Source: Candidatus Saccharimonadota bacterium (lineage in GTDB: Bacteria; Patescibacteriota; Saccharimonadia; Saccharimonadales; UBA10212). Taken from it: a stretch of 64,000 nucleotides of DNA. The DNA lies in assembly GCA_022841445.1 (NCBI GenBank), contig JALHRM010000003.1, positions 343-64,342 on the forward strand, written 5' to 3'. Below the pieces are notes generated by a model, which was not told the origin of the DNA, did no database searches, and saw only the letters and a list, made by a program, of their open reading frames with translations. This document shows, in pieces, positions 3-45,013 of the stretch (its first letter is position 1; every line of letters starts with the position of its first letter). The position numbers and the translations under genes are program-made.

Positions 3-3000
3 TCGTCGACAACCAACGTTAATGTTGGCAGTACGATTGCCGGAACTACGACGCTACAGTCGGCCGGCGGTGTTATTGTTTCAGCACTCGCCACCGCAGA
101 TACGTCAACATACCTATGCCGAAATTCAACGAATCGAATAGCAACTTGTACGGCAGGTGCAAATACTCTCCAAGCAGCATATGATGCAGACGCCGATGGT
201 AGCGATAGTGTTATCGCTCTCACGACAGCTGATGATGGTCTTGTCATCCGCAATCCTAGTTCAGGGGGAAGTGACAGCACTTATAACCTAACTATCGATC
301 AGTTGTCGACTGGTGCTCGTGGTGGGCTAAGCATTCAATCCGCTGGAACAGGCAACCTGTTGCTTGTTACTGATACAACCGCTACAGCTCGCGATGTGCT
401 CGCTATTGCCGACGGGGGAGCTGCTACCTTTAGGAATCAGACTGATTCGACTTCTGCCTTTGGTATCCAAAACGCTGCCGGGACCTCTCTCCTCACTGCC
501 GATACTACTAATCTAGATATTGCTGTTAACGGTCGCCTTGCAGCGACCAAGTCAACTGCTATAAATCAGGACTGGACAAAGATCTCCGGCACCGCCGGCA
601 CCATCGGCGGCAACGGTACCGGCATTGATGGTATGCAAACAGCTGCAGTCTACAACGGTGCACTCTATTTCGGAATAGAAGTGACGGATGCGGCTGCGAT
701 CTACCGCTATGATGCCAACGGAGTATGGACGAGCGTTTCTGGCACTGCCGGCACAGTCGGTGGTGGAGCCACAACCGGTATTGATGGTATACGCGACATG
801 GTCGTTCACAATGGCCAGTTATTTGTTGGCACCGACAAAGCAAATGAAGCCGAAGTCTACCGTTACGACGGTGGCAGCAGTTGGACAAAGATCTCCGGCA
901 CCGCCGGCACCATTGGTGGCAACCCCACTGGCAGCATCAATCGCGCCAATACATTGATCAGTTACAACGGTTCACTGTATGTAGGAACAGAAGAAGCCGA
1001 CAGCGCCGAAGTCTACCGTTACGACGGTGGCAGCAGTTGGACAAAGATCTCCGGCACCGCCGGCACCATTGGTGGCAACCCCACCACACTTATCAATTCC
1101 GTAAAAAGCATGGCTGTGTATAGTGGCTCGCTCTACTTAGGAACCCAGGAATCAAACTCCGCCGAAGTCTACCGTTACGACGGTGGCAGCAGTTGGACAA
1201 AGATCTCCGGCACCGCCGGCACCATTGGTGGCAACCCCACCACTACCATTACGGCGGTGAGCGATCTTGCATCGCATAACGGCAATCTATATGCCGGTAC
1301 CAACAAGACCGACCAGGCCGAAGTCTACCGCTACGATAGCGGTACGACGTGGACTCGGGTCAGCCATACTACTGCCGGAACGATTGTTAGCGGTGGTACT
1401 TCAAGTGTGGATGCTGCCAATGAGTTAGAAGTCGTCAATGGTAGCCTTTACCTTGGAACGTATACGACCAACAGTCAGGGCGAAGCGTACCGCTATGACA
1501 ATGCCGTCGGAGCCTGGACAAAAATCTCTCAAACTACCGCTGGTACCGTTGCAGCGAGCGGGACTGCCAATATAGATGAGATTCAACGACTGGTTGGATT
1601 CGGTGGCTCGCTCTACGCTGGAAGTTTCGAAACAGATGGTGCAGAGGTATACCGTTATGGCGACAACACCCTCGAAGCCCGCTCCACCGAAACCCTCGGT
1701 ACCTTCAGCTTGTCTGGCACTGGTACTGCTTCATTCCAGAACTCTACTAACTCTACTATTGCATTCGATGTCCAAAATGCTGGCGGAGCATCACTATTCA
1801 ACATTGATTCCACCAATGCAGGCAACATTACCCTGCTTGGTGGTAATAGCGGAGAGACGAGTGCATGGCAGATCAATGCCAGTGGTCTGACCACAGCTCT
1901 CAGGGAAAGTTCAACGGTTACCGCCAATGGCTATGTATATATGTTAGGCGGAGTGAACGGTAGTAATGTGGGCGTCACGACCGTCTCCTACGCCAAAATA
2001 AATGCCAATGGCTCGATTGGCAGCTTTACTGCTACCAGCAGTCTGCCATCGGTTCGTACCGGGCACACTTCGGTAGTTGCCAACGGTTACATTTATGTAC
2101 TTGGTGGTCTGGACGCCGAAGCCGGTACCCCACAAGCAACTTCCTATTACGCCAAGATTAATACTGACGGCACCCTCGGTAGCTGGACAATTACGACCAG
2201 CCTTAGTGCAGCTACCGCTCACCATTCCAGTGTCGTCGCCAATGGCTATGTCTATGTCATCGGTGGTCGCAACACCGGCTCAACGCTCACCATATCCACC
2301 GTTTCGTATGCTAAGCTCAACGCCGACGGCACCATCGGTGCCTGGAGTGCCACCTCTAGCCTTGTTACTACTACCGGACTGGCCGCTGCCAGTATTGCTA
2401 ACGGCTACGTTTATATACTAGGTGGTCGTTCCGACACTGCGACTACTGGTGGCCGACAAAACGTCCAGTATGCTGCGCTCAACCCTAACGGTACTGTCGG
2501 AACTTGGACGGATGTTGCTAGTGCCTTGCCGGCTGCCCGAGCAGTACTGACATCAGCTGTTCAAAATGGCTACCTGTACGCCATCGGCGGACGCTTAAGC
2601 GGGACATCAAACACGACCGTCTATTACGCCCAACTTAATGCCAATGGGAGCTTTGGTAACTTTGCCACATCTGCCAATGCACTCCCCGAAGGCCGCGATG
2701 CCCACACAACTATTGCTGCCAATGGCTACCTCTATGCGCTGGGCGGTGAACTCAGTAACACAGAAGCCAGTACCATCTACTACACTTCCACCTCACGAGT
2801 AAGTATTGGCGGCAGTCTAGACTTAGTTGGATTGTCGGGTGAGAACTTGAGCGATGGCGGTGGTGGCAGTCTTACTGCTGGTGATACAGCGATTGTTGGT
2901 ACCTTGAACGTTCAGGAACAGGCTAATTTCTGGGATGCCGTATATGTGGCCAGCGACCTAAGCATCGGCAATAGCCTTGAAGTTACTGGACAGCTTCGCT

Positions 3001-6000
3001 CAGCCGCTATAGGTGATCTTACGCAGGCTGAAGGTGGTGGTGCTGGGCCAGACTCGGTTGCTATCAAGGGCAAATATGCTTATGTGACAAGTTATGATGG
3101 TGACCTGCTTCAAATCGTCGATATTACTGATCCAACCAACCCTGATGATGTCAGTAACGTGACCGTTGGCGATGCACCCGAATCAGTGGCGGTGCAGGGT
3201 AACTATGCATATGTCGGTACAACCGGTATTCCGGGATCGCTCGTAGTGGTTGATATAAGCAACCCATCATCACCAAGAGTCGTTAGTTCGATTAATGCCG
3301 GTACCGATCCATTCCATGTGCAGGTGCAGGGCAGCTATGCCTACGTGTTAAGTCAAAACAGCGACGGAATAAATGTTTTCGATGTTTCAAACCCAAGTGC
3401 ACCGGTACTCGTAAGTACATTCACAACGAGCGTTAATGGCCCACAAGATGCCTACATACAGGGCAATTATATGTATGTTGCCAATAATGATGGTCAAAAC
3501 CTGCAGGCTATTGATATCTCCAATCCTCGAGCGCTGGCTCATGTTGGATCGGTAGGCTTTGCCACTTTGCCACTGTCAGTAGTTGTATCGGGCAGCTACG
3601 CCTATGTCACCGATGAGACTACATTGATGTATGTGGTCGACATCAGTAACCCTGCAAGCATGTCATCACTGGGCAGTTATTTCGCTGACGCTGATATCGA
3701 AGACATGGTGCTACAGGGTCGCTACATCTATGGAGTGAGCAACCAGGGGGCGACGAGCAAGCTGTACGCCTACGACATTACCAACCCAACAACTCCGGAA
3801 GATGTCATGAACATCCCAGTTGGCACAAACCCGTATCATTTGGCAGTCAGTGGCAGGTATGCGTATGTCACCAGCTACACCAGCGATTTGTTGCAGGTGT
3901 TTGATCTTGGTGGCGGCTATGTACAACAACTTGAAGCCGGTGGTTTGCAGGCAACAACAATTAACGTCCAAGATGTTTTGGTGAATAATCGGCTTGATGT
4001 TGGCGGTAGCATAAGTGTCGGCACCAACTTAAGTGTCGGCGGTAATTTATCTATTGGGCGTATTGCCAGCAATATTTTGCCAGCAGCTGCAGCTACAACA
4101 TCGGCAACCAGTGCGGTAACTACCACACTTGATAGCGCCAACGATGTCGGTAACCAGGGTAGTATGAAACTTGGCTCTGACGGTATGCCAATAATCGCGC
4201 ACCACGACGAAACTAACGGTACGCTCCGCATAACGCACTGCTCGACAAGTTCGTGTAGCTCGTCAACAACCGTTACTGCTTATGATACCGCTAATGATGT
4301 CGGTGAATTCCCCGATATAGCTATTGGCAAAGACGGCCTTCCAGTTATCAGTTTCTATGATCGTACAGCGGGCGATCTGTATTCACTGAAATGTACAAAT
4401 GCTACTTGTACTGGTAGCTATATCACGACGTTACTTGAATCGGCTACTAATGCTGGCGGACAAAGCTCAATCGCTGTTGCTCCAGACGGTCTGCCAATCA
4501 TTGCTTTCCTAGATGACACCAATGACAACCTAATGACGCTTAAGTGTAGTAATGTGGCATGTAGTGATACTACGGGAGACACACTGACCACCGTTGAATC
4601 AACAGGGGTTGTCGGTTTTGATCCAGACATTGTCATTGCACCTGATGGCCTGCCTTTCATCGCTCATTATGATTTCACAGGTAACCTTAATCTAAGGACA
4701 GTAAAGTGTGGAAACGCAACTTGCTCATCAGGAAACGTTGTTAACGCACCTGATACCACAAACGATGTTGGTAATCGTCCAGCGGTTGCTATTGGTTCCG
4801 ACGGTCTGCCGATAATCGCCCACCACGATGATACTAACGGTGACTTACGAGTTACCAAATGTGCCGACATAGACTGCAACGTAAGCAGTACCAGCACGCT
4901 TGATTCGACTAATGATGTCGGCGATCAGGCCTCAATAACTATTGGTGCTGACGGTTACCCGCTGATTGTTTACCGTGAAGAAGTTTCTGGCGCAGATCAT
5001 GATGTGAGGGCTATGAAATGTACATCGCTCGACTGTGTTTCAAACACTACGACAGATGTTTACAGTAGCGGAGTTTCCGGCGGTTCAACACAAGTAATAT
5101 TCGGCACAGACGGCTTGCCCGTTGTGTCATTCCAGGATGGTAGCGGTGACGACTTGCTCGCGGTGCGCTGTGGAAACACATCATGTAGCGGCTCCGGTAC
5201 AGCGCTGAGCGGTGGTATTCAACTTGGTTCATCGAGCGTGCCGGTTCAAACCGCTTACATAGGTAACTTGCAAACTGGATCAGCTGCTGAATCTCTAACA
5301 CTCGGTACTAATGGCGTTACTCGACTAACTGTAGATACGTCAGGCAATAGTACGTTTCGGGGTAATATCTTAGCCGCTAGTTCACCAACTTCATCATCTA
5401 CTACTCGCACGCAAACCAGCATTACTGATGCTAATACCGTTGGACAGTGGAGCTCAATTATAATTGGTACCGACGGCTTACCAGTCATTTCTTATTATGA
5501 TCAGAGCGGCGGCGATCTGGCGGTTCTGAAATGTGGAAACGCCGCTTGCACATCTGGCAATACTTCAACCAAAATTTCTGATGGCGGTGGAGATACATGG
5601 GGCCAATGGACATCGATTGCCATAGGCTCAGACGGCTATCCGATTATTTCGCACTACAACTCGACCGATACAGACCTAGCGATTACTAAGTGTAGCAATG
5701 CCAGCTGTAGTTCGAATTCGACTACCAAGTTTGCCGACGGCCTCTATGCTGATGCTCAAGCAAGAGGCACCTATTCGGCTATTACGATAGGTGATGATGG
5801 CTTACCAATAGTGGTTTATAACCAAGACGATGGTGTTTCAGACCGCGATCCGTTTGTCGTCCAATGTACTACCACATCATGCACTGCTCTCGCTAACTAC
5901 ACAGCCATAAATGATGCTGGCGAAAGCCATGGTAGTTTTGCCGACGTTACTATCGGCTCCGACGGCTTGCCGGTGGCGGTTTACCGTAACGCAACTGACC

Positions 6001-7361
6001 AGGCCATTGCAGTAACTCGCTGTACGTTGGCAGATTGCTCAACAACCGCAACACAGGCGAATGTCTATGACACTGCCCAAAACATCGCTCTTGACATGTC
6101 GATCGCAATCAGCCCCGACGGTTATCCAGTGATAAGCGGTCATAATAACGCCACGTTTGACCTGACCGTCACAAAGTGTACGGCTGTCGATTGTAGCACT
6201 TCATCGAGTACTGAAATTGGCGATGGTGGTGGTGATCAAATCGGGTTCTGGTCGTCAATCGCCATCAGTACCGACGGCTATCCGATTATCTCATCAGAAA
6301 ACAGAACTGACAGTGATCTGCATATCATTAAGTGTGGTAATGCAACTTGTACTTCCGGCAATACAACTACTAACCTCGGAACGGTTGACACCGATTTCTA
6401 CACATCAATTGCTATCGGAGCTGATGGTTTACCGGTTATTTCTCACTGGGACTTTACGACCGTCAACAACTTAGCAGTTACAAAATGTGCAGATATTACT
6501 TGTAGTTTGGCGAACTCGTCAACATCCAGTGGTGGTTATAACATAGGTAGTTCAACCAACTACTTCAACAATATCTACGCCAACCAGTACTACGGCAAGA
6601 ACTTCAGTATTGCTAATTTCGACCTTGCCGAGGAATACGCAGTTGAGGATTTGTCACTGGCCGCGGGAGAGATCGTGGCGCTAAACCCAGCTAGCGGTAA
6701 ACTAAAACGAGCAACTTTGAGCGAACGCCAGAACATCATGGGAATTGTTTCGACAAGTCCTGGTTTGGCATTGCGTGACTACGAAGCAAATCGTACGGAT
6801 ACACGACTGATTGCTTTAGTCGGTCGTGTCCCACTTAAAGTGAAAGGCCCAGTCGCCATCGGTGATCCAATCACCATTTCAGAAACTGACGGCGTCGGTA
6901 TAAGGGCTGACTCTGCTGGGTTAATTGTTGGTCGGGCGCTGCAGTCTACCCAAAGCGACGGTACAGTTGATGTGTTTGTTCAGACCCAGTACTACGTTCC
7001 GTCAGTTGAACTCCAGGGTATCAGTTTCAGTAAGTTCCAGGATCTGCTTATCGGTGGGGAACTACAGGCCGAATCATTGGTAGTGAACACAGTTGCTACG
7101 TTCAAGAGCGGTATTATTATCTTTGGCCACATCACTGGCAACGATGATACTCGGGGCACTGTCACTTTGTTGGCGGGTCAAAGTAGCATCACAAAACCAT
7201 TCAACACTGCCTACCTGACGCCGCCGACGGTCGTTGCTTCACCAACCATAAACACTGGCGGTAACAATTTCTGGGTAGTAAAAACCGAAAACGACTTCAC
7301 TATCTATGTTGCCAACCCAACTACTAGTAACATAACTTTCGATTATCTCATCCAGCAGTAG
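3..7361 (+). CDS. Giant multi-repeat cell-surface protein, 5'-truncated (at least 2,352 aa in the window). Order of regions: beta-helix-like N-terminal repeats, a 52-aa WTKISGTAGTIGG/EVYRYDGG repeat, Kelch blades (ANGYVYVLGG), LVIVD blades, 14 copies of a ~50-aa Cys-pair repeat, and an orphan C-terminal domain.
   Basis: The frame beginning at nt 3 has no stop, so the gene continues upstream of the window and the TTG at 303 is not the true start. The translated sequence shows recognisable Kelch and LVIVD periodicities. The ORF is long, uninterrupted, and low in hydrophobic segments apart from its repeats. Confidence 0.85.
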   Translation, partial: SSTTNVNVGSTIAGTTTLQSAGGVIVSALATADTSTYLCRNSTNRIATCTAGANTLQAAYDADADGSDSVIALTTADDGLVIRNPSSGGSDSTYNLTIDQLSTGARGGLSIQSAGTGNLLLVTDTTATARDVLAIADGGAATFRNQTDSTSAFGIQNAAGTSLLTADTTNLDIAVNGRLAATKSTAINQDWTKISGTAGTIGGNGTGIDGMQTAAVYNGALYFGIEVTDAAAIYRYDANGVWTSVSGTAGTVGGGATTGIDGIRDMVVHNGQLFVGTDKANEAEVYRYDGGSSWTKISGTAGTIGGNPTGSINRANTLISYNGSLYVGTEEADSAEVYRYDGGSSWTKISGTAGTIGGNPTTLINSVKSMAVYSGSLYLGTQESNSAEVYRYDGGSSWTKISGTAGTIGGNPTTTITAVSDLASHNGNLYAGTNKTDQAEVYRYDSGTTWTRVSHTTAGTIVSGGTSSVDAANELEVVNGSLYLGTYTTNSQGEAYRYDNAVGAWTKISQTTAGTVAASGTANIDEIQRLVGFGGSLYAGSFETDGAEVYRYGDNTLEARSTETLGTFSLSGTGTASFQNSTNSTIAFDVQNAGGASLFNIDSTNAGNITLLGGNSGETSAWQINASGLTTALRESSTVTANGYVYMLGGVNGSNVGVTTVSYAKINANGSIGSFTATSSLPSVRTGHTSVVANGYIYVLGGLDAEAGTPQATSYYAKINTDGTLGSWTITTSLSAATAHHSSVVANGYVYVIGGRNTGSTLTISTVSYAKLNADGTIGAWSATSSLVTTTGLAAASIANGYVYILGGRSDTATTGGRQNVQYAALNPNGTVGTWTDVASALPAARAVLTSAVQNGYLYAIGGRLSGTSNTTVYYAQLNANGSFGNFATSANALPEGRDAHTTIAANGYLYALGGELSNTEASTIYYTSTSRVSIGGSLDLVGLSGENLSDGGGGSLTAGDTAIVGTLNVQEQANFWDAVYVASDLSIGNSLEVTGQLRSAAIGDLTQAEGGGAGPDSVAIKGKYAYVTSYDGDLLQIVDITDPTNPDDVSNVTVGDAPESVAVQGNYAYVGTTGIPGSLVVVDISNPSSPRVVSSINAGTDPFHVQVQGSYAYVLSQNSDGINVFDVSNPSAPVLVSTFTTSVNGPQDAYIQGNYMYVANNDGQNLQAIDISNPRALAHVGSVGFATLPLSVVVSGSYAYVTDETTLMYVVDISNPASMSSLGSYFADADIEDMVLQGRYIYGVSNQGATSKLYAYDITNPTTPEDVMNIPVGTNPYHLAVSGRYAYVTSYTSDLLQVFDLGGGYVQQLEAGGLQATTINVQDVLVNNRLDVGGSISVGTNLSVGGNLSIGRIASNILPAAAATTSATSAVTTTLDSANDVGNQGSMKLGSDGMPIIAHHDETNGTLRITHCSTSSCSSSTTVTAYDTANDVGEFPDIAIGKDGLPVISFYDRTAGDLYSLKCTNATCTGSYITTLLESATNAGGQSSIAVAPDGLPIIAFLDDTNDNLMTLKCSNVACSDTTGDTLTTVESTGVVGFDPDIVIAPDGLPFIAHYDFTGNLNLRTVKCGNATCSSGNVVNAPDTTNDVGNRPAVAIGSDGLPIIAHHDDTNGDLRVTKCADIDCNVSSTSTLDSTNDVGDQASITIGADGYPLIVYREEVSGADHDVRAMKCTSLDCVSNTTTDVYSSGVSGGSTQVIFGTDGLPVVSFQDGSGDDLLAVRCGNTSCSGSGTALSGGIQLGSSSVPVQTAYIGNLQTGSAAESLTLGTNGVTRLTVDTSGNSTFRGNILAASSPTSSSTTRTQTSITDANTVGQWSSIIIGTDGLPVISYYDQSGGDLAVLKCGNAACTSGNTSTKISDGGGDTWGQWTSIAIGSDGYPIISHYNSTDTDLAITKCSNASCSSNSTTKFADGLYADAQARGTYSAITIGDDGLPIVVYNQDDGVSDRDPFVVQCTTTSCTALANYTAINDAGESHGSFADVTIGSDGLPVAVYRNATDQAIAVTRCTLADCSTTATQANVYDTAQNIALDMSIAISPDGYPVISGHNNATFDLTVTKCTAVDCSTSSSTEIGDGGGDQIGFWSSIAISTDGYPIISSENRTDSDLHIIKCGNATCTSGNTTTNLGTVDTDFYTSIAIGADGLPVISHWDFTTVNNLAVTKCADITCSLANSSTSSGGYNIGSSTNYFNNIYANQYYGKNFSIANFDLAEEYAVEDLSLAAGEIVALNPASGKLKRATLSERQNIMGIVSTSPGLALRDYEANRTDTRLIALVGRVPLKVKGPVAIGDPITISETDGVGIRADSAGLIVGRALQSTQSDGTVDVFVQTQYYVPSVELQGISFSKFQDLLIGGELQAESLVVNTVATFKSGIIIFGHITGNDDTRGTVTLLAGQSSITKPFNTAYLTPPTVVASPTINTGGNNFWVVKTENDFTIYVANPTTSNITFDYLIQQ
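849..1240 (+). repeat. Three identical 80-bp direct repeats (849-928, 1005-1084, 1161-1240; period 156 bp) that encode successive 52-aa repeat units of the giant protein.
   Basis: The exact string gccgaagtctaccgttacgacggtggcagcagttggacaaagatctccggcaccgccggcaccattggtggcaaccccac is read three times. A partial fourth copy lies near 579-620. Confidence 0.9.
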
Positions 7362-33232: not shown

Positions 33233-34762
33233 ATGCAGTGGCTAAACAAAGTTATTGACCAGCTTGTTGCTCGTGGTATTGAACGGGAAATTATTATAGA
33301 ATCGGGAATTTCTCCGTCTGGTTCGTATCATATGGGTTACCTGCGCGAAATTCTGATATGTGACGCTATTTTACTTGCCTTGCGTGCTCGCGGTCATAAA
33401 GCCCGACATATTCATTTTGTAGATGACCAAGATGGATTCCGTAAAGTGCCCTCTAATTTACCTGCTGAATATGAAAAATACCTTGGTATGCCGCTTTGTG
33501 ATATGCCTGCACCCGATGGGTCTGATCAGAGTTATGCCGATTACGCACTGATTGACTTTTTAAGCAGTGTAAAAAAATTAGGTGTAGATTTTGAGCCGAT
33601 CCGCAGCCATGAACAGTACAGAGCCGGATTTTTTGTGCCGGCAATCGAACAAGTTCTCGAAAATATCGATGCCGTAAAGAAAGTCTTAGAAGATATCGCC
33701 GGCCGGAAGCTTAAAGACGACTGGTCGCCGATTCAAGTCAATGAAGACGGCTATTTGAAAAAACGGCCGTTTGTCGGCATTAATCTTGACACAAAAACAG
33801 TACAATATCGGGACAAAGACGGCGCTGAACAGACGATTAGTTACAGCAGCGGCGACGTAAAACTGGATTGGCGACTGGACTGGCCGGCCCGCTGGTGGCT
33901 TATGAAGGTTGACGTTGAACCATTTGGCCGTGACCATGGCACCAAGGGCGGATCATATGACACAGGGCGCGGACTTTTAAAATCGGTGTTTCATTCAGAC
34001 GCTCCTACACCAGTGCCTTATGACTTTATTAATAGGGCTGGCGATACTAAAAAAATGAGTGCCAGCAAGGGGAACGGGATTTTAATGTCCGAAGTCGTTT
34101 CGGTGTTGCCTGTCGAGGTGGTGCGGTATTTCGTATTACGGTCTGAGCCTGGCAAAGCGCTCTTTTTCGATCCGATTGACGGGGTGATACGACTTGTTGA
34201 CGAATATGCGGAGCTACTTGCTAAACCTGATAAGTCAGCAGGCGAAGAATTATTGATACAGCTCAGTACTAACGGACTGGAGTCGATTGTTAGCAGTGTG
34301 CCGTTTTCGCACTTGGTCACAAGTTATCAGGCTTCCTTAAAAGACCCAGCGGCAACGCTTGATGTCATCAAACGTAGTGAATACGGGGGCATCGTTGACG
34401 ACCAGTCCGATATTATCAAGAAAGAGCTAGCCTACATTGATCAGTGGTTAGAGAAGTGGGCGCCAGAGGACGTAAAATTTAGTCTTCAAGAAACTGTTGA
34501 TTCATCAAAATTTAACGACACCCAGAAAAATTTTATGTTGATGTTAGCAGAAAAAATATCTCAAGCCCCAGAAAACGCCGACGGTACTTGGTTCCATCAA
34601 GCAATATATGAGCTAAAAGATGAAACTGATCTTGCTCCAAAAGAGCTATTTACTACACTCTATCAAGCCATTATTGGCAAAGACTCTGGGCCGAGAGCCG
34701 GTTGGTTCCTTAGCCTGCTGCCACGGGACTGGCTAGTTAGTAGGCTGCGCTTAGAGTCGTGA
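33233..34762 (+). CDS. lysS: Class I lysyl-tRNA synthetase (archaeal-type LysRS-1).
   Basis: HIGH-type motif PSGSYHMGY and the KMSKS variant KMSASKG are present. The length and architecture fit LysRS class I. Confidence 0.85.
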   Translation: MQWLNKVIDQLVARGIEREIIIESGISPSGSYHMGYLREILICDAILLALRARGHKARHIHFVDDQDGFRKVPSNLPAEYEKYLGMPLCDMPAPDGSDQSYADYALIDFLSSVKKLGVDFEPIRSHEQYRAGFFVPAIEQVLENIDAVKKVLEDIAGRKLKDDWSPIQVNEDGYLKKRPFVGINLDTKTVQYRDKDGAEQTISYSSGDVKLDWRLDWPARWWLMKVDVEPFGRDHGTKGGSYDTGRGLLKSVFHSDAPTPVPYDFINRAGDTKKMSASKGNGILMSEVVSVLPVEVVRYFVLRSEPGKALFFDPIDGVIRLVDEYAELLAKPDKSAGEELLIQLSTNGLESIVSSVPFSHLVTSYQASLKDPAATLDVIKRSEYGGIVDDQSDIIKKELAYIDQWLEKWAPEDVKFSLQETVDSSKFNDTQKNFMLMLAEKISQAPENADGTWFHQAIYELKDETDLAPKELFTTLYQAIIGKDSGPRAGWFLSLLPRDWLVSRLRLES

Positions 34763-41796: not shown

Positions 41797-42804
41797 ATGA
41801 ACGTCTTTAGCGCCGCAGTGCGTAAATTAACACTGCAATATCTGGCCGTCATCATGGTGCTGAGTCTGATATTCAGTTTTGTACTGTACCAAGTTGCCAA
41901 CCGCGAAATCACCGGCAGTATTCGAGGTCAAGGCCGCATGATTATAGAACGTAGCGGTGGATTTTTAGACCGCAGGGAGATCAACCGCATTCTTCAGCGT
42001 GAGCAGACACTCGCTCGTCAGCGGCTGGTTGGAAGACTTATTGTGTTCAATGTCGTGGTACTCGGTGCAGGGGCATTAGCCAGCTACTATTTAGCGAGGG
42101 AAACAATGGTACCTCTGGAAAAATCGGTGGAAGCTCAAGCGCGCTTTACTGCTGATGCTAGCCACGAACTACGCACACCACTTACTGCTATGCGAACCGA
42201 AATTGAGGTCGCACTGCGGTCTAAAAAACTATCGACCAGTGAAAGTAAACAACTATTAACGAGTAATTTGGAAGAGGTAAATCGTCTCGAATCGCTCGTT
42301 GGCGGGCTGCTTGCACTGGCTCGACTACCGGGCGGTTCAGTGATTAAGCAGAAGGTAGAGCTTGCCCCGATTGTTGACAAGGTTGTGCTACGACTGCGAC
42401 CAATAAGTGACCAGCGTTCAATCACTGTGCAAACCAGTATTCCACAAAGCCTTGCCGTTATTGCCAGCAATGACGCTGTTGATCGGACGCTTACAATTCT
42501 TTTGGATAATGCCATCAAGTACAGTTTAAAGGGTGGTATGATCGATATCCGAGCGTCACGTTACGTAAAGCAAGTACGGATTTCAGTCACTGACAGTGGT
42601 GTGGGTATTAAGCCATCAGACCAGGCACATATTTTTGAGCGGTTTTACCGGGCTGATCAGTCTCGCACGACAAGCGGCCAGAGTGGGTATGGGTTGGGAC
42701 TAGCTATTGCTCGTGAAACAGTTGAACTATATGGCGGTAGAATAGTCGTAAAAAGCCAACCCGGCAAAGGGAGTACGTTTACAGTCAGCTTGCCGAGTGC
42801 ATAA
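41797..42804 (+). CDS. Sensor histidine kinase (HisKA + HATPase_c) with two N-terminal TM helices.
   Basis: H-box FTADASHELRTPLTAM plus N, G1 and G2 boxes (GYGLGLAIARE). The start is 2 nt after the RR stop. Confidence 0.92.
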   Translation: MNVFSAAVRKLTLQYLAVIMVLSLIFSFVLYQVANREITGSIRGQGRMIIERSGGFLDRREINRILQREQTLARQRLVGRLIVFNVVVLGAGALASYYLARETMVPLEKSVEAQARFTADASHELRTPLTAMRTEIEVALRSKKLSTSESKQLLTSNLEEVNRLESLVGGLLALARLPGGSVIKQKVELAPIVDKVVLRLRPISDQRSITVQTSIPQSLAVIASNDAVDRTLTILLDNAIKYSLKGGMIDIRASRYVKQVRISVTDSGVGIKPSDQAHIFERFYRADQSRTTSGQSGYGLGLAIARETVELYGGRIVVKSQPGKGSTFTVSLPSA

Positions 42805-42851
42805 TTGCAGGTGCATGCTATACTAATCGTGTTAGTGTTTAACAATTTGAA

Positions 42852-42958
42852 ATATCAAGAGTGCAGTGAAGGGAACGAGCCCGTTAGTAAGCTGCCGGCA
42901 ACCTGGTTTTTATGCTAAGGTGCCAATTCTCGCCCGAAGCCGGGAAAGATGTGCATAT
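42852..42958 (+). promoter_or_regulatory. SAM-I (S-box) riboswitch in the metK leader.
   Basis: ATCAAGAGtGcaGtGAAGGGAacgaGCCCgttagtaaGCtgccGGCAACC ... AAGGTGCCAATTCtc ... AAAGATG matches the SAM-I P1/P2/P3/P4 consensus blocks. Confidence 0.8.
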
Positions 42959-42962
42959 CAAC

Positions 42963-43004
42963 AATCCTTTCCGGTTATACAAAATAACTTCGAAAGGATT
43001 TTTT
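42963..43004 (+). terminator. Intrinsic terminator / riboswitch expression platform (aatcctttc ... gaaaggatt + TTTT).
   Basis: 9-bp inverted repeat followed by a T-run that ends 2 nt before the metK ATG. Confidence 0.6.
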
Positions 43005-43005
43005 A

Positions 43006-44109
43006 ATGTCACATCATTTTGCATCAGAATCAGTCTGCGCCGGTCACCCGGATAAAATTTGCGATCAAATCAGCGATGCTATTGTCGATGCAGCGCTTCA
43101 GCAAGATCCAAATGCTCGGCTTGGTATTGAGACGATGGCTGGACATAATCAAGTAATTTTAGCCGGTGAAATACGTACTACCGCCAAGCTTGACTATGAA
43201 GCCATCGCTCGTGAGCAAATAAAAAAACTAGGCTACACCAAACCGGAATGGAATTTTAGCGACCAGTCGCCTGTGCAAGTATTGATCCACGAACAGTCAC
43301 CAGAAATCGCTGTTGGTGTTGATGCTGAAGGGGCGGGCGACCAGGGCATGATGTTCGGCTATGCCGTCAAGGATACTCCCGAGCTTATGCCGCTACCTAT
43401 CTTGCTGGCACACCGGCTTACCAAGGCTATCGATGATGCCCGGGAGACCGGCAAGCTCGCTTATTTGCGCCCGGACGGCAAAGCCCAAGTTGTTGTCGAA
43501 TACGAAAACGACAAACCAATCGGTATTTCGCATGTCACAACCGCTGTGCCACATGACGAAGATATAACCCTCGAACAGGTAAAACAGGATGTGTACGATC
43601 AGATTGTGAGCCCTGTTCTGGATCAATATGGTTATGGTGTTGATCTAGAGCAATTGATTGTAAATGGGACTGGGGTCTGGCATCACCCGGGTCCGGATTC
43701 GGACGCTGGTCTGACTGGTCGCAAAATTGTTGTTGATACGTACGGCGGCTATGCCCGAGTTGGCGGCGGCGCATTTAGTGGTAAAGATCCGAGCAAGGTC
43801 GACCGTTCTGGTGCCTATGCCGCTCGTTACATCGCAAAAAATATTGTAGCTCATGATCTGGCCGGCGAAGCCGAAGTTCGCTTAGCATACTACATCGGCG
43901 GCAAAGCGCCGGTGATGCTCGATATCGAAACCTTTGGGAGCGCAAAGAGCAGTGAAAAAGCTATCGCTGACTTTGCAGCTGGACTCCTCACGCCATCCGT
44001 TTCCGGAATTATTGAAGCACTTGATTTACGTCGACCTATCTATCTAAATACCGCCGCATACGGTCACTTTGGCCGCAATGACTTCCCGTGGGAAGCTATC
44101 ACTCACTAG
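43006..44109 (+). CDS. metK: S-adenosylmethionine synthetase.
   Basis: ESVCAGHPDKICDQISDAIVDA and GGGAFSGKDPSKVDRSGAYAARY motifs. Confidence 0.93.
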   Translation: MSHHFASESVCAGHPDKICDQISDAIVDAALQQDPNARLGIETMAGHNQVILAGEIRTTAKLDYEAIAREQIKKLGYTKPEWNFSDQSPVQVLIHEQSPEIAVGVDAEGAGDQGMMFGYAVKDTPELMPLPILLAHRLTKAIDDARETGKLAYLRPDGKAQVVVEYENDKPIGISHVTTAVPHDEDITLEQVKQDVYDQIVSPVLDQYGYGVDLEQLIVNGTGVWHHPGPDSDAGLTGRKIVVDTYGGYARVGGGAFSGKDPSKVDRSGAYAARYIAKNIVAHDLAGEAEVRLAYYIGGKAPVMLDIETFGSAKSSEKAIADFAAGLLTPSVSGIIEALDLRRPIYLNTAAYGHFGRNDFPWEAITH

Positions 44110-44179: not shown

Positions 44180-45013
44180 TTGTCAAATATGAGTGAAGTA
44201 CCAGCGGGCGTCGCCTTTAAGTCGCACGAGGGACTAAGAGATCCCTTCGCCAATACACCCGAAGCCCTGGCGGCAACACGCGTTCTTGGGCGCGTAATCC
44301 CATTCACACTTGGACATCTGGCTTCACAGTTGGTAGAAAGAGGTGAAATCCAGCCGTCGCGAAGAGCAGTTTGTGATTATTTAGCTATTACGCCCGAAGA
44401 ATTGGGTGATAGTTATGTATATTCGGACAGAGAGCAAGTCCGGCGATTTATTTATAGACAGATAGACCGCGCCAAAGTAGAGCTCGATCCTGGCTATAGG
44501 CTACATGTTGCACATATAGGGGCTGAACTCGAAGGCTACAAAGTAACAGATGAGGAAAAAGTAATCGCTGTGGCTAAGGTTGAAAGACGGATAGATGAGT
44601 CTGAAGCGACATATGCTCTGCAGGACGCCGTCGACGAACAAAACGCCGGACACCGCATGAGGGAACCCGTAGAAGTCATTCCACCAGAAGTACAACGTGA
44701 ACTCTTCATACTTCGCATGAAGAGTAGTGCATTGAGAACTGGCATCGCAGCTCCGTTGTCCGCAGTGCTTGGTGCTGCGCTCAGTTATGAGGGCTATACC
44801 CCCTTCTCTAGTGCGGATATAGTCGACGCGGTTGATGATATTGTGTTTGCCGCAGGTGATCTAGATCCAGATCTGCCACTATCTGAAGTAACTCTCGGTC
44901 AATGGGAAATCGACTCATTCCTTGAAGGCCTGCATCGAGCTTTCAGGAGCATATACTGGATGCGCGGAATGAAAAAAGTGGACATCCTCGAATCACTCAT
45001 CTATACATCGTAA
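44180..45013 (+). CDS. Hypothetical protein (277 aa), no recognised domain. The 5' half is GC-rich (about 60%).
   Basis: Clean ORF with coding-like codon structure. Confidence 0.45.
   Translation: MSNMSEVPAGVAFKSHEGLRDPFANTPEALAATRVLGRVIPFTLGHLASQLVERGEIQPSRRAVCDYLAITPEELGDSYVYSDREQVRRFIYRQIDRAKVELDPGYRLHVAHIGAELEGYKVTDEEKVIAVAKVERRIDESEATYALQDAVDEQNAGHRMREPVEVIPPEVQRELFILRMKSSALRTGIAAPLSAVLGAALSYEGYTPFSSADIVDAVDDIVFAAGDLDPDLPLSEVTLGQWEIDSFLEGLHRAFRSIYWMRGMKKVDILESLIYTS

Follow-up and report, generated by a model that had tools for sequence, protein, structure and literature searches.

A slightly atypical SAM-I (S-box) element in the metK leader of a Saccharimonadales bacterium and its candidate terminator/Shine-Dalgarno hairpin

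Riboswitches of the S-box or SAM-I type (SAM, S-adenosylmethionine) have been known on the metK gene since the late 1990s. The yitJ and metK leaders of Bacillus subtilis and the metF aptamer of Thermoanaerobacter tengcongensis (PDB 2GIS) are built around a four-way junction of the helices P1 to P4 and a pseudoknot between the P2 loop and the joining region J3/4. S-box leaders of the Rfam family RF00162 contain an invariant core of AGAG, GCAACC, GGUGC and GAAAGAU blocks with the ligand contacts, are located upstream of metK, and possess mutually exclusive aptamer, antiterminator and terminator helices that have the 3' strand of P1 in common. In the SAM-I element of the Xanthomonas campestris met operon, the platform hairpin sequesters the Shine-Dalgarno (SD) sequence when SAM is bound, resulting in translational control (PMC7270179). 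An element sharing the junction, the pseudoknot, the conserved core and the exclusive helices is located in front of metK in a stretch of 64,000 nucleotides (the window) of contig JALHRM010000003.1 from a Candidatus Saccharimonadota bacterium. Judged from its sequence, this element is a slightly atypical and slightly derived SAM-I/S-box aptamer, the mechanism and descent of which are already known, and it very probably acts as a functional SAM-responsive OFF switch for metK. It differs from the typical S-box of the Bacillota by its host, a member of the Saccharibacteria within the Candidate Phyla Radiation (CPR), by a score 2.4 bits under the family threshold, by a P1 of 5 bp and a P4 of 4 bp, by a 3x8 loop that replaces the kink-turn of P2, and by a predicted terminator that adjoins the start codon and contains the SD sequence.

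A permissive Rfam scan aligned positions 42849-42955 of the plus strand with RF00162 in full length (model positions 1-108), yielding 42.0 bits and a local E-value of 2.3e-08, where the curated gathering score of the family is 44.4 bits. RF00162 (E=3.7e-06) is the sole Rfam match with E<=1 on both strands of the 64-kb window and thus not a chance hit; the window contains a single copy of the element. The covariance model R2, which was built from 13 relatives with the window copy and the leader L216 left out of the seed, assigned 63.5 bits (E about 8e-17) to the window copy and also detected genuine S-boxes in Halobacillus and in another genome of the Bacillota. This result establishes the SAM-I homology independently of the Rfam threshold; the 82.5 bits obtained with a model R1 were discarded as circular, since the window belonged to its seed, and R2 was used instead. 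All hallmark blocks listed by the first-pass annotation of this DNA were recovered at the claimed places and in the stated order when read from the plus strand, namely ATCAAGAG (42854-42861), GAAGGGA (42868-42874), GCCC (42879-42882), GCCGGCAACC (42894-42903), AAGGTGCCAATTC (42918-42930) and AAAGATG (42945-42951). Its identification of a SAM-I aptamer, followed by a hairpin and a U-run in the metK leader in a SAM-dependent OFF arrangement, holds as well. The label canonical had to be dropped, as P1 comprises only five pairs and P4 four, and P2 is devoid of the tandem G·A pairs that define its kink-turn.

The presumed target gene, metK (43006-44109, plus strand), encodes a methionine adenosyltransferase of 367 amino acids that matches the TIGR01034 equivalog with 452.6 bits (cutoff 309.4), placing the element upstream of a methionine/SAM gene. 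The contigs of ten MetK relatives were fetched by exact protein look-up and hence sampled blind to the RNA, and a SAM-I element was detected directly upstream of metK in all ten of them (11 of 11 leaders with the window). Together with six metagenome copies from a pattern scan, 17 copies of the clade were scored with RF00162, ranging from 39.4 to 57.3 bits; five of them fall under the gathering score, i.e. the window copy (42.0), L216 (41.7), L186 (41.6), L163a (40.8) and L082 (39.4). All homologous copies except one precede metK. The metagenome pattern GCAACC..GGTGC..ATCCTTTC turned out to be too loose, with true homologues accounting for seven matches in 6 of 120 loci, and the copies found in this way are unusable for arguing the conservation of the three fixed blocks of the pattern. 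The nearest source-annotated homologues of MetK (about 70% identity) and of SecA (about 80%) are mostly named Candidatus Saccharibacteria or Saccharimonadales, and an exact look-up of the window MetK itself gave no entry. Among the MetK matches listed in the contig search with identities of up to 60%, L001 and L002 gave no Rfam SAM match at E<=0.01. Positions 128-272 of L001, upstream of a metK gene whose product is 60% identical, score 36 bits with R2; L001 belongs to a metagenome-assembled genome labelled 'uncultured Gammaproteobacteria', and either this taxonomic label or the divergence of the element is noteworthy.

Covariation supports the secondary structure. When 16 copies were aligned on the basis of the model, standard pairs were formed by 91.5% of the cells, as opposed to 35-47% with slid 3' partners, and both partners have changed in 23 of the 35 pairs, three of these 23 being among the four pairs of the pseudoknot; none of the five measures was reached by any shuffle. 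This alignment was fitted to the model and therefore favours the structure, but eight protein-anchored copies aligned with MAFFT alone revealed the same trend, with 91.4% of the cells paired and 10 pairs carrying double changes. A whole-leader MAFFT alignment (A1), in which P4 and the platform were misaligned, was replaced by the aptamer-only and model-based alignments. Every helix of the aptamer is supported by covariation in the 16 homologues, including all four stem pairs of P4. The pseudoknot occurs as CGAG/CUCG in the window and in L216, as CUAG/CUAG in most of the clade and as UUGG/CCAA in L082, and 96.8% of its cells pair across the clade, which is especially informative since the covariance model ignores the pseudoknot.

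The cmscan alignment and the pair counts allowed us to assign the individual helices. The 5' strand of P1 (AUAUC, 42852-42856) pairs with GAUGU at 42948-42952; an outer extension of this helix was considered by eye, and the only candidate, a weak UUGA/UCAA pairing across a 2x5 loop, was not adopted. The P2 arm (42861-42896) consists of P2a, formed by 42863-42867 and 42891-42895, and P2b, formed by GGG (42871-42873) and CCC (42880-42882), which are separated by an irregular 3x8 internal loop with GAA opposite GUUAGUAA at the usual site of the kink-turn. In the P2 loop, CGAG (42876-42879) is the 5' half of the pseudoknot and pairs with CUCG (42929-42932) in J3/4. P3 (42897-42924) contains the invariant GGCAACC...GGUGCC core, and P4 (42928-42947) is closed by the outer pair U42928-A42947 and pairs CCCG (42933-42936) with CGGG (42941-42944) around an AAGC loop. 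The four helices are hence present in the order of the four-way junction, with the core P4 hairpin and with short P1 and P4 helices. The nucleotides of the ligand pocket, A6-U88 and U7-A87 in P1, G11 in J1/2 and C44, A45, U57 and G58 in P3 (2GIS numbering), are all kept and map to positions 42854, 42855, 42859, 42899, 42900, 42921, 42922, 42949 and 42950. Of the 23 positions named as highly conserved in SAM-I (PMC3764141), 19 are retained, including A6, U7, G11, C44, A45, U57, G58, A87 and U88, and the remaining four are U4, the pair of which is flipped, and G19, G35 and A36 of the tandem G·A pairs in the kink-turn. The sequence underlying the 2GIS numbering is consistent with all 23 positions in the cited publication.

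The most conspicuous deviation concerns P2, in which the tandem G·A pairs (G19·A36 and A20·G35 in 2GIS numbering) are absent. The two strands of the window P2 read 5' GCAG-UGAA-GGG and 3' CCC-GUUAGUAAG-CUGC, the latter lacking any GA step, whereas most members of the clade possess a textbook kink-turn of 5' GCAG-CGA-GAG and 3' CUC-GNN-GA-C-CUGC. As the kink-turn is considered important for the formation of the SAM-I pseudoknot (PMC3764141, PMC3064774), its loss is the main structural reservation about the window element. The closest relative with an obtainable leader, L216 (93-193), the MetK protein of which is 73% identical, has GGG/CCC in P2b and CGAG/CUCG in the pseudoknot like the window copy, and it is likewise devoid of the G·A tandem; when folded, its P2 is one continuous helix containing a GUUA bulge of 4 nt. 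The deviation is thus a trait of a sub-lineage and not an assembly error. Most other Saccharimonadales copies combine the canonical kink-turn (CGA/GNNGAC) with the CUAG/CUAG pseudoknot and a GAG/CUC P2b, and most copies pass the Rfam threshold at 45-57 bits. Since the pseudoknot is kept by compensatory change in the sub-lineage of the window and L216, P2 presumably still bends despite the missing tandem.

The aptamer is followed by a hairpin at 42963-43000 that is predicted to act as terminator and to sequester the SD sequence. Its outer stem pairs AAUCCUUUC (42963-42971) with GAAAGGAUU (42992-43000), and RNAfold extends this 9-bp stem by inner pairs of 42973-42978 with 42984-42989 to a bulged hairpin of 15 bp. 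The 9-bp stem and the T-run adjoining the ATG of metK had been described before and were found as claimed, the T-run covering 42999-43004 and the ATG 43006-43008. The 3' arm of this hairpin includes an SD-like AAAGGA (42993-42998) that precedes the AUG by 7 nt, so the SAM-bound fold must also occlude ribosome binding, and the six U of the run would serve both as terminator tail and as spacer between SD sequence and AUG. The arrangement is conserved, as AUCCUU(U)C...GAAAGGAU, a short U-run and the AUG follow the aptamer within about 15-20 nt in the window copy and in all but one of the ten relatives anchored by protein; in L081, whose MetK is 93% identical, the hairpin is the same apart from one loop change. 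Leaders of the hairpin type retain the motif GAAAGGAU, which is varied to GAGAGGAU in L093 and to GAAAGGUU in L095. In almost every relative, at least four U (4 to 6) stand behind the stem, and metK is the only one of the 14 SD-bearing genes of the window with at least four consecutive U in the SD spacer, which argues for selection of the run as a terminator tail.

The 5' arm of the hairpin represents the anti-SD sequence and is also used by a predicted antiterminator or anti-sequestrator. The 5' strand of the latter, CCGGGAAAGAU (42940-42950), comprises the 3' strand of P4, J4/1 and the first part of the 3' strand of P1, and it is complementary to AUCCUUUCCGG (42964-42974) at 10 of 11 positions, with a predicted energy of -15.1 kcal/mol versus -13.5 kcal/mol for the terminator hairpin. 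All leaders of the hairpin type have a predicted antiterminator of this kind, and in 12 of 14 the terminator does not exceed it in stability. The flanks of the antiterminator change together (CCGGG/CCGG, GGCCGG/CGGCC, CAUGGG/UCAUG and others). Counting in fixed columns was abandoned, since the register varies by a bulged C or an A·C mismatch, and duplex energies were used instead: across 16 leaders, cognate arm pairs average -15.2 kcal/mol compared with -11.3 kcal/mol for non-cognate ones (a difference of 3.9), and none of 20000 permutations reached the observed value. The pairs at the foot of the hairpin stem covary as well (p about 0.0006). Relatedness between some of the leaders inflates the statistics of arm covariation, the direction of which is clear. 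Antiterminator and terminator are mutually exclusive, and the antiterminator shares the 3' strand of P1 with the aptamer.

From this arrangement we infer the following sequence of events. When SAM is bound, the junction of P1 to P4 and the pseudoknot between the P2 loop and J3/4 would be locked, keeping CCGGGAAAGAU within P4, J4/1 and P1. The segment AUCCUUUCCGG would then be free to pair with GAAAGGAUU, and the resulting hairpin with its six U most likely halts RNA polymerase a few nucleotides before the AUG, while in read-through transcripts the same hairpin would bury the SD sequence. At low SAM levels, P1 with its only 5 bp and P4 would open, and CCGGGAAAGAU could pair with AUCCUUUCCGG as antiterminator or anti-sequestrator, leaving the SD sequence free and metK transcribed and translated. 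The first-pass annotation had regarded the leader as direct evidence of SAM-responsive attenuation, which overstates the case: the homology of the aptamer, its covarying structure, the covarying alternative helices and the location of the SD sequence in the hairpin are shown, but the evidence for SAM binding, for the direction of regulation and for the division between transcriptional and translational control is inferential. The hairpin and U-run described by the annotation are confirmed by our analysis; attenuation as the only read-out is not, since the 3' arm of the hairpin carries the SD sequence. With respect to the Xanthomonas campestris element, which keeps the kink-turn, also sequesters the AUG and has an anti-SD sequence that binds uncharged initiator tRNA, none of these features is evident in the window element, and the latter possesses in addition a U-run typical of terminators.

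Several observations weigh against a functional SAM-I switch with a two-fold read-out and are considered here along with the explanations they would favour. The default Rfam scan of the window, run at the curated gathering score, returned no match, since the score is 2.4 bits short; bits are lost at three mismatched outer pairs of P1, at the 4-bp P4, at insertions around the internal loop of P2 and through the pseudoknot, which a covariance model is unable to score. P1 is limited to 5 bp, includes one U·G wobble and lacks the three outer consensus pairs, RNAfold recovered neither P1 nor P2b in the isolated aptamer, and the stability of this isolated fold is unremarkable (z=-0.89). Taken with the missing tandem G·A pairs, the sub-threshold score of 42.0 bits, the short P1 and the ordinary stability might suggest a decaying or non-functional SAM-I relic that has lost SAM binding. 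We consider such a relic highly improbable, as compensatory changes relative to the clade keep the pairing in P2b (A-U to G-C) and in the pseudoknot (U-A to G-C), the variant P2 and pseudoknot are also kept in L216 at only 73% MetK identity, every ligand-contact position is intact, and so is the complementarity of antiterminator and terminator. The blank of the default scan was set aside as a refutation because of the full-length match obtained by the permissive scan. The first-pass annotation had named a score under the gathering threshold as a reason to reject its own assignment; the score indeed lies under it, but the identification nonetheless survives by virtue of the conserved homologues, the covariation and the independent model R2. 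It is exceedingly unlikely that the element belongs to SAM-IV or SAM-I/IV, other families of the SAM clan, instead of SAM-I, even though an overlapping match to another family of the clan exists and the absence of the kink-turn is reminiscent of SAM-IV and SAM-I/IV: that match scores lower, RF00162 being the best-scoring clan member, the core P4 hairpin is present and covaries, and close relatives with a canonical kink-turn pass the RF00162 threshold. As to the P3 loop-3' tail pseudoknot that marks SAM-IV and SAM-I/IV, no conserved complement was recognized by eye 3' of P1 in the relatives, and the P3 loops vary freely in sequence and in length from 6 to about 70 nt; the criteria separating SAM-I from the two other families were taken from PMC7270179.

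As to the level of control, regulation of both transcription and translation by one hairpin is the reading we favour, giving it an even chance of being correct. If the hairpin and U-run acted solely as an intrinsic terminator and overlapped the ribosome binding site by coincidence, the leader would correspond to pure transcription attenuation in the classical S-box layout, and the U-run of 4 to 6 after the stem in nearly all relatives, its atypical character among the SD spacers of this genome and the covarying base of the stem would fit well. This explanation is unlikely in view of the SD-like AAAGGA in the 3' arm, 7 nt from the AUG, a location in which the hairpin must block ribosome access to any full-length RNA as well, of the AU-rich and bulged stem, which makes termination a prediction, and of the relative L082, which is devoid of any terminator; moreover, hairpin-plus-U-run sites are not enriched in the window (21 versus 20.7 expected and 26 versus 22.2). 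The lack of a terminator signal across the window is shared as an argument by purely translational control, in which the hairpin only sequesters the SD sequence and the U-run is a plain A/U-rich spacer. The position of the SD sequence in the 3' arm, the direct design of L082 with SD sequence and AUG inside the aptamer and no hairpin, and the documented translational SAM-I control in Xanthomonas point in the same direction, but this explanation appears rather doubtful, since a stable stem with a conserved U-run right behind it is what characterizes intrinsic terminators and such a spacer occurs in only one of the 14 SD-bearing genes of the window, metK itself. Two further points count against the favoured reading: the SD resemblance of GAAAGGAU could partly be forced by mimicry of the aptamer segment GGAAAGAU, and in a crude survey of the window, 31 of the 45 open reading frames (ORFs) of at least 200 amino acids had no SD-like 4-mer at a distance of 4-10 nt upstream of any in-frame start in their first 60 codons, so that SD use may be limited in this genome.

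Variants of the element were noticed among the relatives. The SAM-I aptamer of L082 (1332-1503) carries a P3 insertion of roughly 70 nt and a P4 of 2 bp and has no terminator hairpin; the A of the metK AUG is the last nucleotide in the 3' strand of its P1, and the 3' strand of P4 together with J4/1 provides the SD sequence, which looks like a direct, purely translational control by the aptamer itself. On L163, a second SAM-I copy (4426-4548, minus strand) is located about 1.8 kb from the metK copy and precedes a gene (3888-4373, minus strand) encoding a 161-amino-acid protein with a GerE/LuxR-type helix-turn-helix domain (PF00196, 30.6 bits); the SAM regulon of some Saccharibacteria may therefore include a transcription regulator. 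The metK start of L100 (about 166-168) reads ATA where all other leaders have ATG (TTTTTTATACCAAAT), a difference due either to a sequencing error or to the use of a rare, non-canonical start.

The mechanism proposed for the metK leader is a textbook one, and the value of the finding lies mainly in its context. Saccharibacteria are epibionts with reduced genomes that depend on their hosts and lack methionine synthesis, and they appear to keep riboswitch feedback on the synthesis of SAM. About a third of the elements in the clade score below the Rfam gathering threshold and are under-reported in this phylum by routine annotation, while a model specific to the lineage retrieves them cleanly; Rfam-based annotation would already detect the copies above the threshold. 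In the literature searched, a single library and thus not proof of novelty, we found no description of a native riboswitch in Saccharibacteria, only synthetic riboswitches being mentioned as prospective tools. A perspective from 2024 (PMC11665869) counts riboswitches among the tools desirable for inducible expression in Patescibacteria, and a native, compact SAM-responsive leader could be a starting point for such a tool. Tentatively, and with some doubt, the window copy and L216 may be regarded as a natural SAM-I sub-lineage in which the kink-turn of P2, generally regarded as necessary for bringing the P2 loop to J3/4, is replaced and the pseudoknot is nevertheless maintained by compensatory change, and which, with its single hairpin serving as terminator and SD sequestrator, would constitute a minimal dual-level SAM switch conserved across Saccharibacteria. 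If this were true, the kink-turn-less dual-level switch would join the very small number of native regulatory RNAs on record for CPR bacteria and would provide a ready-made tool for ligand-controlled gene expression in these organisms. SAM-I variants without a kink-turn moreover provide a natural test of the dispensability of this motif.

The region in front of the aptamer contains two further conserved elements. An extended -10-like box, TGCTATACT (42816-42824, plus strand), was read from the sequence as a putative promoter, and boxes of the type TGnTAnAnT are present at the equivalent place in most leaders of the relatives (L085, L093, L094, L095, L082, L184, L163b and L216). A TTAACAA box just 5' of P1 (42839-42845, plus strand) probably lies near the 5' end of the transcript; it recurs in almost every Saccharibacterial metK leader, being located 3-6 nt upstream of P1 and downstream of the -10-like box in L082, L085, L087, L089, L093-L095, L184, L186, L163, L195, L216 and L217. 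With six copies versus about 14 expected, TTAACAA is not enriched in the window, which rules out a general promoter or start element and indicates that the box is specific to the metK leader. No convincing complement with which it could pair was found in the leaders by eye. The succession of promoter box, TTAACAA, aptamer, antiterminator, SD hairpin and AUG is common to the window and the Saccharimonadales metK leaders L085, L087, L089, L091, L093-L095 and L217 as well as the metagenome copies.

The genes preceding the metK leader encode an OmpR-type response regulator and a histidine kinase, the latter ending at position 42804, and directly downstream of metK follows an ORF of 277 amino acids (44180-45013) with no Pfam or NCBIfam match. 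On L087 (1112-1182) and L091 (533-603), an identical 71-nt tRNA gene is located on the minus strand, opposite to and upstream of the metK leader; the window has no tRNA genes. The window also encodes a class-I lysyl-tRNA synthetase (33233-34762; PF01921, 322 bits), the less common type of this enzyme in bacteria, and a LytR-CpsA-Psr protein, and its genes are oriented almost in one direction; these features are compatible with an origin from Saccharibacteria. A giant ORF of 2352 amino acids occupies positions 303-7361 on the plus strand.

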